A stretch of DNA of 64,000 nt from Escherichia phage V18, in sequence record NC_041937.1; one strand, 5' to 3'. Of the stretch, positions 9,072-28,885 are shown piece after piece. The notes under the pieces were generated by a model. That model did not search any database. It saw only the letters and a program-made list of their open reading frames with translations, and was not told the DNA's origin. A program made the position numbers and the translations under genes. Numbering within the stretch: the first letter of the stretch is position 1; each line of letters begins with the position of its first letter.

Positions 9072-9983
9072 TTATTTCCCGTTAACTTTGTCGTAGTTTC
9101 CCTGTTCAGATGGGACTATGGTAGAAGGTCTTCCATATTCCTGATAATACCAATCCGCAGCCGATTGGGTAACACCGTTTTCATCTGTCCACATCATAGA
9201 TTTATATGGCTGCCACTCCTCTGCAGCATTTGTGGATGCAGTGTCTGCAAATGCCCCTGTGTCCCTCTTGTTACCTACGTTACTACCATTCTTACAGTCG
9301 TTGACAGCACCTTTTTGTTGGGTCTTGCCTACTTTCTTAGGGTTGCTGTATACGGTTGCATTAACAACCTTGTTCAAGTAGAATGTGCGGAACTCTGTAA
9401 GTTCTACATCAAACACCATTGCAGCACCTTCACCAACAGACTTGCTGGCAGAAAGGCTGGTTATGATGTAGTTCTCAAGAAGTCTCTCCTCGGTAACCAA
9501 AGAAACCAACTGTCGCTTATTAATGATCTCAGTCAAAGCCTCCAGTGCGGCACCTGGTCGCATAGATGCTGCAGGGTTTTTAGAGTCAGTATTCCTATCG
9601 ATGTAGTTTTGCTCATAGATTATATGTGGGGATGTATTTACCCTACCAGTAAAAGAAAATACACCATCTTTAATCACAGCGTGGTCTGACAGGGTAGATT
9701 TATCTTCCACCGCAAACCCCGTCTTATCAACAGAGTGTTTGAAAGAGTAATTCTCAACCTGATCGAAGATAATGGCAAGATCGTTAGTGAAGTTTTTACC
9801 CTTCATCTCTATGTTGCGACCGCCATAGTTAAGACCGCTGACAAACATAGTGTACTTTACATCGCTTTCGGTTTGCTGCTCTGCCTTTTCAGCCTTTGGA
9901 GATTTAACCTCTCGAGGCTTGTACAGGTCTTTTTCATCAACTATGTTACTTTGCATAACCTCTCCAGGACACTCCGATACCAT
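9072..9983 (-). CDS. hypothetical tail protein
   Basis: 303 aa ORF directly downstream of tape measure gene. Confidence 0.4.
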   Translation of the reverse strand: MVSECPGEVMQSNIVDEKDLYKPREVKSPKAEKAEQQTESDVKYTMFVSGLNYGGRNIEMKGKNFTNDLAIIFDQVENYSFKHSVDKTGFAVEDKSTLSDHAVIKDGVFSFTGRVNTSPHIIYEQNYIDRNTDSKNPAASMRPGAALEALTEIINKRQLVSLVTEERLLENYIITSLSASKSVGEGAAMVFDVELTEFRTFYLNKVVNATVYSNPKKVGKTQQKGAVNDCKNGSNVGNKRDTGAFADTASTNAAEEWQPYKSMMWTDENGVTQSAADWYYQEYGRPSTIVPSEQGNYDKVNGK

Positions 9984-10059: not shown

Positions 10060-11559
10060 TTACCAAAGGTCGGTAGACATGAAGTTGATATCTTTGCTGT
10101 TCTCCCACTCAAGTTTTGCATCAAGTATTTTGCTAAACTCACCCTCATCTATGGAAAGCGTGATTTTCCCATCACTGATCTCTAAAGGTAGCATTTCCAT
10201 AGTTCTTAATTGAGAAGCAAAACCAGGGCCACCTGGCAACGGAAGAGTCCCGCCCGGCAAAGTGTCCAAAGGATTAACAAACCCGTTACCTCCCGATATG
10301 ATATCTTTGCGAATCATATCGCTGATAGTATCCAGTTGCTGATTTCTTTCACTCAGTGGGTTGAAACGGTCATTAAATAATTCCCCGGCGCTTAATATTG
10401 TACCGATAATGCCCAGCTTGCCGAGCAGACCAACTTTACCACCAGGTGTCTTGAGGCCACCTCCACCTTTTCCTGCCGCGCCACCACTACTAGATCCTTC
10501 TGCAGTAGCGGCACCCGCTGCTCCAGCTGCACCCCTTAGAGAGTTAAGGAATTTAAAGGTTTTTACAAGCATAGATGCCATGACAAAACCTTTTGTTAGG
10601 GCGTTGACTACCAGCATGATGGCAGCAGCAAACCCTGCCCATTTAGCATAGCTAAAGGTGTCATGAAGCTCTTCAGAATATTCCTTCGTCTTAGCTGTTA
10701 TGAATCCCCATTTAATCCCCCATTCAAGGAAAAACATGCGGATCTTGACTATAGTGTTGTTTAGTTCACCAACTACCCAGTTAAGGCCTCTCACAAACCC
10801 ACTAACAAAATCACCAGAGGCATCCCACACAAATTGCAGAGTCTCACCAGTGCGGATTAATGTATAATAGAACTCTGTTAGTTCGTCAGACCAACGGGTG
10901 AACAGTTTCTGACGAGTCAGTTCGATGAAGGTTTTCAGTCTGTTTTCTGCCAGCACGTTAGACTTCTGCATTCTTTCATAACCAGCTGCAGATGCCTCGT
11001 TCATGTACTTAGCCACATACTTCATGATCTTGGCTGTTTTAACCTCACCTTTCTTCATCATGTCCATGAACTGATCCATGGATAGTTCAGAAAGACCAAA
11101 AGCCTCTTTAGTGGCCTTGATAAAAGGTTCGTATGCACCAGGCAAGGCTTCAGCAAGTTGTTGCTTCAGTTCTTCGGACATTACTTGTCCCTTGCCAAGC
11201 ATCTGTTGGATTGCCATAATACCGCGCTGGTATTTTACCTCATCAGCACCATAAGCAGCAGCATACTGGGAGTATGCAGAAAACAGCTCATGCACTTCCT
11301 GATTTGTCATCTGGTTTTTGGCGTTTACCGACATCTGGGCGTAACCTTGAAGACCAGATTTGAGATCAAAACCAAGACGCATAGCCTCTTGCTGGACAAA
11401 CGCAACCTCACTGTTGGCTTTGTTTGGATCTCCAGTAACAGCAGTAAGAGCAGCACTTGCCCCCTCCATCATGTGACCGGATCTGTTAACCGCAGCAAAT
11501 CCAGAAAAAGCTGTATACGCAGCTGTTGCATTAATAACAGATCTACGTAAGTCTCTCAT
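10060..11559 (-). CDS. tape measure protein
   Basis: 499 aa; long helical protein with hydrophobic segment and Gly-rich stretch (GAAGAAGAATAEGSSSGGAAGKGGGG); sits after tube and chaperone genes. Confidence 0.65.
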   Translation of the reverse strand: MRDLRRSVINATAAYTAFSGFAAVNRSGHMMEGASAALTAVTGDPNKANSEVAFVQQEAMRLGFDLKSGLQGYAQMSVNAKNQMTNQEVHELFSAYSQYAAAYGADEVKYQRGIMAIQQMLGKGQVMSEELKQQLAEALPGAYEPFIKATKEAFGLSELSMDQFMDMMKKGEVKTAKIMKYVAKYMNEASAAGYERMQKSNVLAENRLKTFIELTRQKLFTRWSDELTEFYYTLIRTGETLQFVWDASGDFVSGFVRGLNWVVGELNNTIVKIRMFFLEWGIKWGFITAKTKEYSEELHDTFSYAKWAGFAAAIMLVVNALTKGFVMASMLVKTFKFLNSLRGAAGAAGAATAEGSSSGGAAGKGGGGLKTPGGKVGLLGKLGIIGTILSAGELFNDRFNPLSERNQQLDTISDMIRKDIISGGNGFVNPLDTLPGGTLPLPGGPGFASQLRTMEMLPLEISDGKITLSIDEGEFSKILDAKLEWENSKDINFMSTDLW

Positions 11560-16269: not shown

Positions 16270-16740
16270 TTACTGTCCGATTTTAAAGGTTGCAGATTCA
16301 AGCAGCACATCGTAATGCCGCATAGCCTCGTTGAAGCCCTTTTCTTGTGCCCACTGCTCACTAACAGTAGGATTACTAAACTGCCCAGCCTCAATAACAA
16401 ACTGGATAGCTTTGGCCCCTGTGTCCCCCATCTGCTTAAGAATAGCCTCTGCACTTGATCCTCTAGCCATAGCTCTCAACAATTTTTCTGTCAAGGTCTG
16501 TAGTTGAGCACTGTGAAATGCAAAGGCTGTCTCCATGAAATTGCGAACAGGCAGCCCGTTCCAACCGAAGTTGTGAATGGCTGCCAATGTTGCCATATTT
16601 AAGCCTGACGGGTGAGGTTCGTCATAAAAGCCGTAGGTTATTGTTTTGCTTTCAAGTCTCACAAGATCTTTGTAGAAGCGATCTAAACGCTTTAGGTTGA
16701 ACCTTGTTTGACACTTAACCTTTAGCATTATATCCCTCAC
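16270..16740 (-). CDS. hypothetical head-tail joining/completion protein
   Basis: 156 aa ORF in same co-oriented array. Confidence 0.4.
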   Translation of the reverse strand: MRDIMLKVKCQTRFNLKRLDRFYKDLVRLESKTITYGFYDEPHPSGLNMATLAAIHNFGWNGLPVRNFMETAFAFHSAQLQTLTEKLLRAMARGSSAEAILKQMGDTGAKAIQFVIEAGQFSNPTVSEQWAQEKGFNEAMRHYDVLLESATFKIGQ

Positions 16741-24531: not shown

Positions 24532-24608
24532 TGGTCTCCACGGAGTGATTCGAACACTCGACCTCCTGATCCCAATGGTTTATCTCTACCAAGCTGAGCT
24601 ACGCGGAG
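24532..24608 (-). tRNA. tRNA-like gene, Pro(UGG)-like, with non-pairing 5' anticodon-stem strand
   Basis: Hand-folded: acceptor CTCCGCG/CGTGGAG, T-arm GAGTG-TTCGAAT-CACTC, encoded CCA, loop ATTGGGA, but AAACC cannot pair with TCAGG. Confidence 0.45.
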
Positions 24609-24619
24609 TATTTATTATT

Positions 24620-24694
24620 TGGTGGCCCTGGGTGGAATTGAACCACCGTCTGGCGATTATGAGTCGCTTGCTTGAACCTTCCAGCTACAGGGCA
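24620..24694 (-). tRNA. tRNA-Met (anticodon CAT)
   Basis: Hand-folded cloverleaf: anticodon loop CTCATAA, T-arm GGTGG-TTCAATT-CCACC, encoded CCA; position 1:72 is a T:C mismatch. Confidence 0.6.
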
Positions 24695-24770
24695 TGGTGC
24701 TGATAGCAGGACTCGAACCTGCAACCTATTGATTACAAATCAATTGCACTACCAATTGTGCTACATCAGC
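24695..24770 (-). tRNA. tRNA-Thr (anticodon TGT)
   Basis: Acceptor GCTGATG/TATCAGC, D-arm GCAC/GTGC, anticodon stem ATTGA/TCAAT with loop TTTGTAA, T-arm GCAGG-TTCGAGT-CCTGC, CCA encoded. Confidence 0.7.
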
Positions 24771-24867
24771 AAAAAGGTGCTAGGTGATGGAATCGAACCA
24801 CCTATGTATTCAACGACCAATAGATTTACAGTCTACACCGCTACCTCTACGGGATAACTCCCCAATT
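24771..24867 (-). tRNA. tRNA-like element with Tyr(GUA)-type anticodon arm; acceptor stem not resolved
   Basis: Anticodon arm GTAGA-CTGTAAA-TCTAT and T-arm GGTGG-TTCGATT-CCATC present, long variable region, but 5' and 3' ends do not pair; may be degenerate or mis-folded by me. Confidence 0.3.
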
Positions 24868-24942
24868 TGGCACCCCGTACTGGACTCGAACCAGTGTCAA
24901 CGGCTTAGAAGGCCGCTGCTTTATCCACTAAGCTAACAGGGC
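24868..24942 (-). tRNA. tRNA-Arg (anticodon TCT)
   Basis: Acceptor GCCCTGT/ACGGGGT with G:U pairs, D-arm GCTT/AAGC, anticodon stem GCGGC/GCCGT with loop CTTCTAA, T-arm ACTGG-TTCGAGT-CCAGT, CCA encoded. Confidence 0.65.
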
Positions 24943-25038: not shown

Positions 25039-25377
25039 TTAGCTATTGCTAACAGGTTGTATTTCTGTGGTAAATGGCATAAAAGGTGCTGGTTTTTCAG
25101 CCTCTTCTACTACCACCTCTTCCTCTTCACCAAACATCTCATCATATTCTTCCTGCATTCGGTCTGCCTTATCAAGAACATACTCTGCAATGCTTTGACG
25201 AATATTTTGTTTGGTTTTCGGGTCCAACATCAGCTCTCTTAAAACTTTGTGAGCTTCTGGAACCATCGCTATAAAAGATTCCTTCATATCAAGGATGTTC
25301 TTCTCTAGCTGAATGGCGTTGGACTCCTCTTTCAGAGGTCTGCCTCTACGGCGACGCTTTTTAGTTGTATCCGCCAT
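25039..25377 (-). CDS. hypothetical basic/acidic protein
   Basis: Start placed at ATG 25377 (MADTTKKRRRRGRPLKEE...) with sigma70-like promoter upstream; longer track ORF to 25497 runs into GC-rich noncoding DNA. Confidence 0.45.
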   Translation of the reverse strand: MADTTKKRRRRGRPLKEESNAIQLEKNILDMKESFIAMVPEAHKVLRELMLDPKTKQNIRQSIAEYVLDKADRMQEEYDEMFGEEEEVVVEEAEKPAPFMPFTTEIQPVSNS

Positions 25378-25434: not shown

Positions 25435-25721
25435 GTTCGCCGCAGGGGTGTATTCCCTGCGACTTGCCCAGCGTCCTGGACCAGCAAGACCCAACAAGTG
25501 GGTTACCAGAGCACATTACCGCGCTTTGGCTCGACCTTATTACAGGTTGGCTGGGGTCACATCGTCATGTGCTGGCTGCCCCTACCATTTTAAGTGTGGT
25601 GCACTATCAAGCCCTCTAAGGGGAACTCAGTCTTCTCCGAACCCTGTTTCAAAACATCCGGAGATAAAGCCATCAAATTCATCTTTAAATCGGATATTCA
25701 TCATGATACACGAAAACAACC

Positions 25722-25964
25722 TCATTGTAAAGCACAAATAAATAAAACATACTTAATTTGTTTGTTATCAGGCTCAGGGTAGAAGTAGAAGATCTTGCTA
25801 TCACCGATCTGAACACCACCATCCCAACAGCATAGCCCATAACCCGTATTCATACAAGCTAAGTCGTTGGCAAAATCTATTGCATCATCCAGTGCACGAA
25901 ATTCACCTTCATCTTCTAAATAATCCTCATTCATGGAACGAAAAACGAGCTTAACCTTAAACAT
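25722..25964 (-). CDS. hypothetical protein
   Basis: 80 aa ORF, co-oriented with neighbouring leftward genes. Confidence 0.4.
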   Translation of the reverse strand: MFKVKLVFRSMNEDYLEDEGEFRALDDAIDFANDLACMNTGYGLCCWDGGVQIGDSKIFYFYPEPDNKQIKYVLFICALQ

Positions 25965-26819: not shown

Positions 26820-27180
26820 AGCTGCCTCCTCTTCAAGTTATAGAAAAACTCACTGTATCGCTTTGTAACGAGCTTTTCTATCAAACTGGTGCGATTGCCT
26901 TACCTGGTATAGTTTATATAGCTGTGGAGCGATTTAGGGGCCTTCTTGTCCGTTTCCACACATAAACTTCATCCAAGCTCGCGCGGGAGACTCTCAACCG
27001 ACTCCTTACGGCGCTGGCAAGCTTTCGTCGGTGGTCCACATCAGTGCTCGGCCTTTGGCCTGCGCTATCGCTTCGCTCCCACACATGTTAACAGACCTGC
27101 ATGTATGCACTTCTGTTATTGTGTGCACCCGGGAGGCCCGGCATCTCGCCCCTCGTAGCGAGTGCCAATGAAGGGCCGAC

Positions 27181-27320
27181 ACTACCCGTAGTAAGTAATA
27201 AATTTAAAACATAGTACTTAGGATCTAGTATATTCTACATAAGTTAAGTATATGTACTTAGTACCATAAGTACTAGATCTTTTATTTTTTATTATTTAGT
27301 TATTTTAGTTATATTCTTTA
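27181..27320. other. AT-rich tract with short repeats (possible DNA unwinding element)
   Basis: Strongly AT-rich; repeated GTACTTAG / AGTACT words and tandem TTATTTTAG; lies between GC-rich segment and palindromic repeats. Confidence 0.4.
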
Positions 27321-27322
27321 TG

Positions 27323-27382
27323 TGTCCGTATCACGGACAGTTAGTGTCCGTATGACGGACAGTAGTGTCCGTATCACGGACA
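27323..27382. repeat. three phased palindromic repeats (iteron/operator-like array)
   Basis: TGTCCGTATCACGGACA at 27323-27339 and 27366-27382, TGTCCGTATGACGGACA at 27345-27361; 7 bp arms, 3 bp centre, 21-22 bp phasing. Confidence 0.7.
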
Positions 27383-27457
27383 GTTACTAACCTCTGTTCC
27401 ATAGCGAACATAAAACATACGAATCCTTATAGTACAGATATTTAAGTTTTTACTGGT

Positions 27458-27808
27458 CTAACCAGTTGTTGACATTCGAATAACTTCTTCTGGTGGCAAA
27501 ACTTTGGAAAATGTGCATCTTTTACCTCTCCCTTGTGTGGATATTTCAACCACTCCTGCACATTCTAAAGTTTTAACGCACGCTGCTGCTTTTGTTTTCT
27601 TTATCCCAATATCTGCTGCAATTTTCCTTGTGCTGGGCGTGAAGCGTGAATTTCCTCCAAGCTTATACCAGTTGTGCAGGTAGCAGTATACGATCTTGTC
27701 ATATAAGTCAAGAACAACAACCTCACCAGTTGTGTCATTCAAAACTTTTGACATAGACAGTATTTCAAGGGGGACTTTAAGATATAGCAGCTTATCCCCA
27801 TCTTTCAT
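27458..27808 (-). CDS. small winged-helix DNA-binding protein (putative regulator or initiator)
   Basis: 116 aa; FTPSTRKIAADIGIKKTKAAACVKTLECAGVVEIS resembles a wHTH recognition region; 3' end lies about 75 bp from three palindromic repeats. Confidence 0.5.
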   Translation of the reverse strand: MKDGDKLLYLKVPLEILSMSKVLNDTTGEVVVLDLYDKIVYCYLHNWYKLGGNSRFTPSTRKIAADIGIKKTKAAACVKTLECAGVVEISTQGRGKRCTFSKVLPPEEVIRMSTTG

Positions 27809-27855: not shown

Positions 27856-28410
27856 TTACTCCCCGCTGTCAATAGCAAGACTCATTGCAATACGGTATGC
27901 CTCTTCTAATGGTAAGAGTCTCCCCCACACATCCCAACCGACATCAAACTGCCTGCCAAACAACTGCTGTGTGGTTCCGTGAGCATGACCGAACAGTTGG
28001 ACCGATCCGTGAGGCTTTCTGTTCCACTTTGCAAACTGGTAATGGCTCATACAGATCAAATTCTTGTTGTGGCGAAGCTCGTAATAATCTACAACCTCAT
28101 GACCGAACTCTTTCATAATTCTGACAGTCGTCCTTGTGTCATGGTTACCACGAACAAGAATAATATGTCCGTTCAACATATTTAGAACATCTGGGAGCAA
28201 TTTGTTAATATTCTTATCATTAGTGCACGCAATATCTCCTAAGTGAAACACAGTGTCTGCAGGTGACACAACAGAGTTCCACTTGGTGATGATCCCCGCA
28301 TTCATACTGTCAAGATTGTGATCATACTGAGATCTGTGTTTTTGACATGAGTCAAACTCCATGACCCGCTGGTGGAGAAAGTGTGTGTCGCTTGTTACAA
28401 AGTATTTCAT
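27856..28410 (-). CDS. calcineurin-like metallophosphoesterase (putative polynucleotide 3'/2',3'-phosphatase)
   Basis: Start at ATG 28410 (MKYFVTSDTHFLHQ) with GAGGA RBS; motifs DTHF, HLGDIA, RGNHD, GHAH. Confidence 0.65.
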   Translation of the reverse strand: MKYFVTSDTHFLHQRVMEFDSCQKHRSQYDHNLDSMNAGIITKWNSVVSPADTVFHLGDIACTNDKNINKLLPDVLNMLNGHIILVRGNHDTRTTVRIMKEFGHEVVDYYELRHNKNLICMSHYQFAKWNRKPHGSVQLFGHAHGTTQQLFGRQFDVGWDVWGRLLPLEEAYRIAMSLAIDSGE

Positions 28411-28417
28411 ACATTCC

Positions 28418-28828
28418 TCATTTAAGTTTAATGCAGTTTTTAAGCTGGCGTTCCATACGATCCACAACCCTGTCTGGAACATCATGAATGCTTTTACTAC
28501 CATGGCGGTTTTCAACCACGATTACGGTATAACTATACCCATGACTGATCGCCATGTCAATATATTCTTGCACATATTTTTCTTTTGTAAATGTATTACT
28601 TACCACGATACGGTCGTATCCCATACGCATCATATCTTCTACGTTATCTTTGCACCATTTTGCTGCAAGTGTTACTTTACTTGCATCCCAGTTGTAATTT
28701 CCATCATCGTCGTACCAGAACATGTCGTTCTCAAAATGTGGATACAGACCTTCTAAAGATAGCGCACTTGCCAGTGTTGATTTGCCAGACCCTGGTAGAC
28801 CACGCACGATATATAGCATTTTAGACAT
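28418..28828 (-). CDS. P-loop polynucleotide kinase-like protein
   Basis: Start at ATG 28828 (MSKMLYIVRGLPGSGKSTLA) with GGAGG RBS; resembles T4 Pnk kinase domain; stop overlaps phosphatase RBS. Confidence 0.6.
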   Translation of the reverse strand: MSKMLYIVRGLPGSGKSTLASALSLEGLYPHFENDMFWYDDDGNYNWDASKVTLAAKWCKDNVEDMMRMGYDRIVVSNTFTKEKYVQEYIDMAISHGYSYTVIVVENRHGSKSIHDVPDRVVDRMERQLKNCIKLK

Positions 28829-28856
28829 AGTAATCCTCCGTTTTAATTTCAACGAT

Positions 28857-28885
28857 AGTATACCTAACTGTTTTGTTAATTTCAA
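28857..28885 (-). promoter_or_regulatory. sigma70-like promoter for kinase/phosphatase operon
   Basis: Minus strand TTGAAA-N17-TATACT in divergent intergenic region. Confidence 0.4.

Follow-up and report, generated by a model that had tools for sequence, protein, structure and literature searches.

The locus

Positions 25435-25721 of a 64,000-nucleotide (nt) stretch of the Escherichia phage V18 genome (NC_041937.1), referred to here as the window, form a GC-rich gap between two leftward genes. This gap, hereafter block 1, is the subject of the present analysis, and its minus strand is a candidate source of a structured RNA (25700-25439; minus-strand coordinates are given in descending order). 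On one side lies an open reading frame (ORF) of 80 amino acids (aa) at 25722-25964 (phrog_5676), on the other an ORF of 112 aa at 25039-25377 (phrog_3330), and both are supported as real. The latter is preceded by its own promoter at 25434-25406 on the minus strand (TTGACA-17-TAAAAT, 11/12 matches, extended -10 TG), which is the downstream boundary of the RNA and lies outside it. The GC content amounts to 50.2% in 25435-25721 and 55.8% in 25435-25640, versus 43.4% in the window as a whole, and the former segment ranks at the 98th percentile among 287-nt windows. A preliminary inspection confined to the letters of the DNA (the sequence-only reading) had described a GC-rich non-coding block between gene 25722-25964 and the promoter of gene 25039-25377; with real flanking genes, a measured GC enrichment and no conserved ORF found, this description holds.

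In the 2.4 kb around block 1, about 116 rV5-like Escherichia phages of the genus Vequintavirus share 97-99% identity with V18. In the direction of transcription, all genes here being leftward, the order is RNA ligase 1 (opposite strand), a polynucleotide-kinase-like P-loop protein, a phosphoesterase, a helix-turn-helix (HTH) regulator, a second GC-rich block (block 2, 26940-27180), three small genes, block 1, the 112-aa gene and a transfer RNA (tRNA) array.

Predicted fold of the minus-strand RNA

The minus strand of 25700-25439 folds as a chain of hairpins whose pairs survive almost all of the substitutions seen among eight Vequintavirus genomes. Its folding energy is -102.8 kcal/mol, versus -89.9 kcal/mol for the plus strand (z = -2.25 versus -1.82). 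RNAalifold, applied to the eight aligned Vequintavirus copies, gives 84 predicted pairs, of which five show compensatory double changes, located in the hairpins 25664-25634, 25503-25489 and 25481-25466. Another 17 carry one-sided switches between Watson-Crick and G:U pairs only, and 7 are broken or gapped in at least one of the eight genomes. Since one-sided G:U switches amount to A:C mismatches on the opposite strand, the minus strand is the functional sense.

A candidate sigma70-type promoter at 25731-25703 on the minus strand (TTTACA-17-TATCAT, 10/12 matches, identical in close relatives) overlaps the last codons of gene 25722-25964 and would place a possible RNA start at about 25696. Read-through from the promoter at 26044-26016 is an equally possible source of the transcript. 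Downstream of the candidate site, a conserved 21-mer (AAAGATGAATTTGATGGCTTT, 25686-25666, minus strand) is unique within the window and recurs without change in the divergent loci L041 (456-476) and L102 (8403-8423; L numbers designate the retrieved loci). Their flanks are far more divergent: the alignment is limited to 111 nt around the core, at 76%. In both loci the 21-mer sits just upstream of the -35 element of a consensus promoter, and its candidate roles are those of an upstream promoter element, a micro-ORF or a segment of the RNA.

All further elements lie on the minus strand. The 5' hairpin predicted by RNAalifold (UCUCCGGAU...GUUCGGAGA, 25664-25634) shows one compensatory change, C:G to U:A in L083, and three Watson-Crick/G:U switches. 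It is followed by a conserved segment, CCCCUUAGAGGG-CUUGAUAGUGCACCACAC (25623-25594), which is nearly identical in the L041/L101-L103 clade, where it starts about 10 nt after the consensus promoter (L041 and L101-L103). Next comes the P1 domain (25582-25553), an outer GGGG/CCCC stem around the hairpin CACAU-GACG-AUGUG, whose architecture is shared across phage families. Beyond the core described below, the hairpin ACCCA-CUUGU-UGGGU (25503-25489) has a compensatory A:U to U:A change in L100, and in the hairpin GUCCAG-GACG-CUGGGC (25481-25466) three pairs have compensatory changes (L096, L100). Two further pairings proposed by RNAalifold were rejected: a long-range GGCUUG/CGAGCC interaction is unlikely, being broken in L100 and without counterpart in other families, and an alternative CUGUA/UGCGG pairing is unsupported by comparison.

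The predicted RNA closes with a 9-bp hairpin, GUCGCAGGG-AAUACAC-CCCUGCGGC (25463-25439), which stops 5 nt before the -35 element of the next promoter. It includes the 7-bp hairpin singled out by the sequence-only reading, CGCAGGG-GTGTATT-CCCTGCG, which is present letter for letter (cgcaggg at 25441-25447, gtgtatt at 25448-25454, ccctgcg at 25455-25461). A terminator scan did not call the hairpin at 25441-25461 an intrinsic terminator; there is no U tract, and the tail reads GCGAACUUGACA. A perfect 7-bp hairpin is also present in 8% of shuffles of the block, and the window holds about 12 comparable GC-rich hairpins. The hairpin by itself is therefore not beyond chance expectation, and its significance comes from the conservation of its stem: among the Vequintavirus copies the stem is kept, with one C:G to U:G change, and the loop is variable. 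Thus the hairpin is a real and conserved feature, but it is merely the 3'-terminal stem, and the informative feature of block 1 is the three-way-junction core at 25554-25507.

The three-way-junction core

The core comprises 48 nt (25554-25507, minus strand) and follows the scheme P2-ACCU-GUNNNA-AGGU-CNA-GC-N6-GC-GGUAA-N-G-P2'. P2 pairs 25551-25548 with 25515 and 25513-25511, leaving 25514 bulged, so that AGCCA is paired with UG(U)GCU in the window; most family members have a bulged G after the first P2 pair. P3 joins ACCU (25547-25544) to AGGU (25537-25534) around the loop GUAAUA, and P4' is a 2-bp stem of GC (25530-25529) with GC (25522-25521). The junction strand GGUAA (25520-25516) is nearly invariant in the family, and the near-invariant junction nucleotides as a whole read ACCU.GU...A.AGGUC.AGC......GCGGUAA. 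The versions of the window and of T4 have in common P2-ACCU-GUAAUA-AGGU-CGAGCC-N5-GCGGUAA-P2'. An initial P4 model pairing GCC with GGU was dropped, as L100 (GCC..GC to GGC..CC) and L101-L103 (GCC to GCA) favour the 2-bp GC/GC stem; accordingly, the P4' pair changes from C:G to G:C in L100, and a loop position changes from C to A in L101-L103.

A covariance model built from the core, R1, finds it at 25554-25507 with 63.7 bits (E = 6e-26) as the sole match in the 64 kb, where the next-best score is 8.6 bits. R1 scores separate first copies (at least 50 bits) from tandem second copies (30-43 bits) and from pattern-selected chance matches (at most 23 bits, real copies scoring 30-71). Across 38 distinct cores, 94.5% of the cells are paired and the covariation score is 0.305, versus 0.076 in shuffles (reached by 0 of 500) and at most 0.094 when the partners are slid. 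The variation within P2 is extensive. Its first pair (7-40) is A:U in 22 cores, U:A in 6, U:G in 5 and C:G in 3, and it is G:C in the truncated copy L089; pair 6-42 is CG in 24, GC in 4, UA in 4 and AU in 2; and pair 5-43 is CG in 29 and GC in 8.

A further mark of the family is P1, a hairpin domain of variable sequence that directly precedes P2 on its 5' side; in the window it lies at 25582-25553. P1 has the same architecture with other sequences elsewhere: GGGAA/UUCCC in T4, GGAAC/GUUCC in L041, and AAAGG/CCUUU, AAAGC/GCUUU or AAAGA/UCUUU in other T4-like phages. In the T4-like lineages pair 16-63 is G:C in 9 cases, C:G in 4 and A:U in 1, and P1 covaries both within and between families. Because the flanks were unconstrained by the patterns used for retrieval, this stem covariation is unbiased; the unbiased material comprises the flanking P1 and P2 and the variants derived from blastn or from other anchors (L100-L103, L026, L094).

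Several possible likenesses of parts of the core were set aside as probably due to chance: that of GCGGUAAU to the 16S 530 loop, an 8-mer match to ribosomal RNA being expected by chance; that of the GUAAUA loop to the 23S 1095 loop, loop positions 3-5 varying in the family; and those to lambda boxB and to the tRNA-Tyr anticodon loop CUGUAAA.

Distribution among phages and genomic context

A sensitive blastn search with block 1 recovered the full length in Vequintavirus only. The same search gave matches of 41 nt (25514-25554), 90-97% identical, to about 545 T4-like genomes, where they fall in the gap upstream of vs.8. RB18 and T4 are among the genomes in which this piece follows the stop of a variable upstream gene, precedes the vs.8 start and has an unchanged orientation with respect to the genes. 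Further carriers came from scanning viral and metagenomic contigs for patterns: more T4-like lineages, 46-kb siphoviruses of Klebsiella, Salmonella and E. coli, contigs of 70, 75 and 96 kb, a distant relative of phiEap-2 and a divergent rV5-like clade (L041, L087, L101-L103). On this sequence evidence, the family spans rV5-like phages, T4 and T4-like phages, 46-kb enterobacterial siphoviruses and unclassified contigs, and it typically lies inside or beside a tRNA gene island.

Same-strand tRNA genes occur within 170-1200 nt of the motif in 13 loci belonging to at least four unrelated phage types; in the window, the core is on the same strand as tRNA-Arg (24868-24942), 565 nt away. L041 has a consensus promoter (TTGACA-17-TATACT with TG, 481-509) directly upstream of the RNA and the promoter of the next gene directly downstream, the two bracketing an RNA of about 170 nt, and in L094 and L042 an intrinsic terminator is found directly 3' of the motif. 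Between lineages there is no relationship among the genes downstream, which are tail-fibre-like, HNH-like or small ORFs where any are present. In the siphoviruses no ORF is present for more than 500 nt downstream of the motif. The 46-kb siphoviruses (L040, 8420-9500, minus strand; L037, L039, L047, L080) carry an ORF-free island of about 1 kb with tRNAs and with the motif in a long closing helix; boxA-like UGCUCUUU sequences recur in this island, and ARAGORN leaves at least one tRNA-like unit in it uncalled.

In T4-like phages, a vs.8 homologue is always directly downstream, down to 37% aa identity. The vs.8 product is an uncharacterised P-loop protein (phrog_1488); as a candidate protein partner it has no homologue in the window, and it is dissimilar to the window's P-loop kinase. 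The annotated T4 start of vs.8 (219 aa) runs 40 codons upstream over the motif (L008, NC_000866, 3794-3913, i.e., T4 64,793-64,912). In other T4-like phages the homologues begin at MRTFLTG (179 aa), and an over-extension of the T4 start is probable. One T4-like lineage (L048, 9021-9068 and 9135-9180; L091; L045) has two tandem motif copies upstream of vs.8, the second of which, in the L048 lineage, has the shortened junction CAGCC-CGCG-GCGGUAA.

Database searches and coding potential

The Rfam search called for by the sequence-only reading returned no family match in block 1, even at E up to 10, against the 4,227 models of Rfam 15, riboswitches, ribozymes and phage RNAs included; at E up to 5, the copies of T4, L014 and L016 had no match either. 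As for tRNAs and transfer-messenger RNA (ARAGORN and Rfam RF00005), only three tRNAs were called, at 24620-24942, and none within 25435-25721. Block 1 had no match among 5,426 E. coli genomes. In 185,579 bacterial and archaeal species genomes, 23 pattern matches were obtained, all without the ACCUGU half; these are chance coding matches, about 17 being expected by our estimate. The core sequence was not found in the searchable literature, and a paper on T4 RegB and denV proved unrelated.

No conserved ORF was found over block 1, where 1-nt indels shift every long frame over the core among genomes 95-97% identical; homologues of the block thus show no conserved ORF over the core. In GenBank records the block carries either no annotation or micro-ORFs that disagree from record to record (78, 99 or 111 nt). 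Block 1 thereby appears to lie outside the protein-coding class, with frames broken or shifted over the core and only a 25-codon 5' ORF persisting.

The second GC-rich block and neighbouring features

Block 2 (26940-27180, minus strand) is the most GC-rich segment of all (58%) and contains a structured element unrelated to that of block 1, with a homologue on 13-kb E. coli plasmids. The comparison of the two blocks for shared motifs, proposed at the outset, yielded chance 7-mers only. A block 2 helix, ACCGAC/GUCGGU (27032-27027 with 27002-26997, minus strand), encloses the invariant loop GAAAGCUUGCCAGCGCCGNAAGGA, and the phage and plasmid versions differ by three compensatory pairs in one helix. 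The proposal that this inter-module region carries structured RNAs or protein-binding sites rather than proteins is thus favoured by the comparative data for block 1, in the form of a minus-strand structured RNA, and compensatory changes are found in block 2 as well. In Rfam no family exceeded its gathering score for block 2, the best being rli43 (27.9 bits versus a gathering score of 100), and the viral contigs contained a single match, itself on a contig of Vequintavirus size.

The plasmid homologue is found at L009 (NZ_CP020521.1, 12380-12700) and also in NZ_CP178698.1, NZ_CP035869.1, CP148565.1, CP134895.1 and NZ_CP043822.1. Its carriers are circular E. coli 'plasmids' of 13.2-13.7 kb and a 39.6-kb record with three copies. 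Among the products of these plasmids are a major capsid protein, a tape-measure-like protein and a 'baseplate' protein, and three plasmid proteins match window ORFs, with identities of 51% (9270-9884), 44% (16300-16722) and 28% (10666-11430). The plasmids resemble satellite or mini-phage elements with a relationship to rV5-like phages.

In both phage and plasmids, block 2 adjoins iterons and AT-rich DNA. In the window, three tandem 22-nt repeats (GTGTCCGTATCACGGACAGTTA, 27322-27386), each internally palindromic, stand beside AT-rich DNA (27190-27320) and the HTH gene 27458-27808, an operator-like or origin-like arrangement. The HTH gene is called a 'transcriptional regulator' in some records and a 'replication initiation protein' in FV3. 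Block 2 may be tied to replication.

Other observations concern the surroundings. The RNA blocks adjoin a gene set of RNA-repair type (27856-28885 and beyond) comprising, per the annotation of relatives, RNA ligase 1, a polynucleotide-kinase-like P-loop protein and a metallophosphoesterase. Compared with AlexBoehm and Mangalyan (L001, 708-1078), the tRNA array of the window is without about 370 nt (tRNA-Lys, Ser and Tyr) at 24770-24868, and the two flanks share a 34-nt overlap of similar sequence there, suggesting that a stretch between tRNA-like repeats was deleted. ARAGORN made no tRNA-Pro call at about 24532-24608, where relatives carry one. Finally, 18 records named 'Campylobacter phage' (GenBank MG0656xx) are about 97% identical to the E. 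coli rV5-like region; they are probably mislabelled or derived from contaminating coliphages.

Interpretation and rival explanations

The comparisons show a predicted fold that is conserved, covarying and specific to one strand, the lack of a conserved ORF, and membership of a family. That block 1 encodes a structured RNA of a conserved family is, on these grounds, very likely. As a whole, the observations are probably best explained by a stand-alone non-coding RNA of about 170-260 nt (25700-25439, minus strand) belonging to a phage-specific family; that it acts in trans as a free binder is a possibility that we take seriously without leaning towards it. Such an RNA would be transcribed early, along with the leftward genes, from the 25731-25703 site or by read-through, and would end at the stable 25463-25439 hairpin or be trimmed back to it. 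It would then persist as a free, stable RNA, whose invariant junction would bind one sequence-specific partner common to enterobacterial hosts, be it a protein, an RNA or a small ligand. The near-invariance of the junction across phage types, while the stems covary, points to such a specific molecular partner in Enterobacterales. An analogy would be offered by phage tRNA islands, which carry other translation- or defence-related RNAs.

Several points weigh against this explanation. Transcription, RNA ends and stability are all inferred, and in the window clade the RNA lacks a strong promoter directly upstream and its terminal hairpin lacks a U tract. The T4-like copies without exception occupy the 5' leader of vs.8, a position that suits a cis-regulator as well as a free RNA. 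Within the core, P3 (ACCU/AGGU) is invariant, so comparison neither supports nor refutes it, and P4' rests on one compensatory event, that of L100. Most loci were retrieved by patterns that fix core bases, so that the near-invariance of the core is partly by construction. Moreover, owing to the relatedness of the sequences, significance is overstated by the shuffle statistics; the slid-partner control is the fairer one.

The foremost alternative, a cis-acting leader or riboswitch-like aptamer controlling the downstream gene, i.e., vs.8 in T4-like phages or the 112-aa gene and the tRNAs in the window, appears unlikely to us, although it draws on some of the same observations: the invariable position of vs.8 and its distant homologues directly downstream, the aptamer-like composition of fixed junction nucleotides and freely covarying stems, the tandem copies in one T4-like lineage, and the order of motif, intrinsic terminator and gene 40-75 nt further on in L042 and L094, which is the layout of a termination riboswitch. 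These have to be set against downstream genes that are unrelated or absent between lineages, a near-consensus promoter that, in the window and in L041, stands between the RNA and the next gene, the siphovirus motif sitting in an ORF-free RNA island, and inspection by eye, which found no conserved alternative pairing that could serve as an expression platform (an anti-terminator, or an anti-Shine-Dalgarno in the T4-like leaders). It is improbable that the motif is instead an element of RNA processing or transcription in tRNA islands, such as a self-cleaving ribozyme, a nuclease entry site or a put-like processive antiterminator. Its co-orientation with nearby tRNA arrays, its occurrence amid boxA-like UGCUCUUU sequences in about 1 kb of untranslated siphovirus DNA, and the succession of two structured domains (P1, then the junction) almost without linker, a loose and purely architectural resemblance to HK022 put, whose two stem-loops act on RNA polymerase in cis against downstream terminators, would suit such a role. 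Nevertheless, no ribozyme or other Rfam 15 family matches, the T4-like copies are 6 kb from the tRNA array, a terminator immediately after the motif in L042 and L094 would be odd for an antiterminator, and no boxA-like sequence is conserved in the rV5 clade.

The two remaining possibilities place the function outside RNA. Near-identity over 41 nt in unrelated phage families implies horizontal transfer, and the motif of T4-like phages lies at a junction with a variable upstream gene (denV, RB32ORF122c or others); together with the GC-rich islands within AT-rich early regions and the iterons and AT-rich DNA beside block 2, here and on plasmids, this could evoke a DNA-level element, i.e., an origin-associated or R-loop region, a single-strand initiation signal, or a recombination or homing junction spreading between phages. 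We consider this highly improbable, as substitutions favour G:U-compatible changes in one sense only, the stems covary while the unpaired junction stays fixed, and the orientation always agrees with local transcription, tRNAs, promoters and terminators; formally, a fold of minus-strand single-stranded DNA is still conceivable. Hardly credible is the proposal that an annotated micro-ORF, such as MMNIRFKDEFDGFISGCFETGFGED at 25704-25627, is the functional product. Its frame is open in all eight Vequintavirus genomes, and the 21-mer coding KDEFDGF is conserved in L041 and L102, where an ATG and a Shine-Dalgarno sequence give MKDEFDGF. Yet this frame covers the first 75 nt only, outside the conserved core, over which frames are scrambled by 1-nt indels; close relatives differ by 3 synonymous and 4 non-synonymous changes (alignment inspection); the window clade has no Shine-Dalgarno sequence for it; in L041 it is reduced to 8 codons; and identity of 21/21 nucleotides at such divergence argues for a constraint on nucleotides rather than on protein.

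If the stand-alone small RNA is real, it adds to phage biology a widespread and strongly constrained RNA, including in the much-studied T4, where the element is buried within an apparently over-extended vs.8 annotation. It also explains the 'empty' GC-rich gaps of rV5-like genomes, which annotators have filled with arbitrary micro-ORFs. The 33-nt junction is nearly invariant in myoviruses, siphoviruses and T4-like phages, and partners of phage RNAs are few and sought after, be they defence nucleases, translation or RNA-decay factors, or metabolites. A bolder and doubtful view would see in the motif an aptamer-like module exchanged by unrelated virulent phages because it addresses one conserved enterobacterial factor. 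On that speculative footing, it might be an RNA decoy that neutralises a defence or housekeeping protein binding RNA, tRNA-directed or otherwise, or it might represent a new class of ligand-sensing riboswitch able to work in two settings, as the leader of T4 vs.8 and as free RNA. Since the element is small, single-copy and present in tractable phages (T4, BASEL rV5-like phages), its function is directly testable.

Comparison with known systems

The species 1 and 2 RNAs of T4 (rnaC and rnaD) are alike in being phage-encoded, untranslated, of 120-140 nt, co-oriented and located in or next to the tRNA island. They differ in having no homology to the element of block 1, R1 reaching no more than 6 bits anywhere in the T4 tRNA region and blastn returning chance 7-9-mers only. 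T4's own copy of the motif is 6 kb from the tRNA cluster of rnaC and rnaD, upstream of vs.8.

Purine and thiamine pyrophosphate (TPP) riboswitch aptamers are small three-way junctions with invariant junction nucleotides and freely covarying stems. The element shares with them the invariant junction and the covarying stems, as well as a leader-like position in T4-like phages, L042 and L094. In contrast, a match to an Rfam riboswitch, a conserved downstream gene family and a recognisable expression platform were all not found, and in several phages the motif forms a separate transcription unit or lies in ORF-free DNA.

Among rV5-like phages, Pectobacterium phage PhiTE carries pseudo-ToxI, an anti-defence RNA that is reported to bind a host defence protein (PMC3475682). 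ToxI-type RNAs are tandem 36-nt repeats, and the element of block 1 is single-copy and non-repetitive; pseudo-ToxI nonetheless provides a precedent for phages of the same subfamily carrying a non-coding RNA against a host defence protein. On a broader scale, about 8,500 'csRNAs' from IMG/VR were catalogued by Fremin et al. (2023; PMC10690425), reportedly with tRNA-like candidates and candidates directly upstream of genes included. The approach described there resembles ours, relying on the comparative analysis of intergenic regions with covariation support, and the present family may already be sitting unnamed in this bulk catalogue. The element is thus of a known kind, the phage-encoded orphan structured RNA, but it belongs to a family for which we found no description, and its spread across phage families, T4 included, is unusual.

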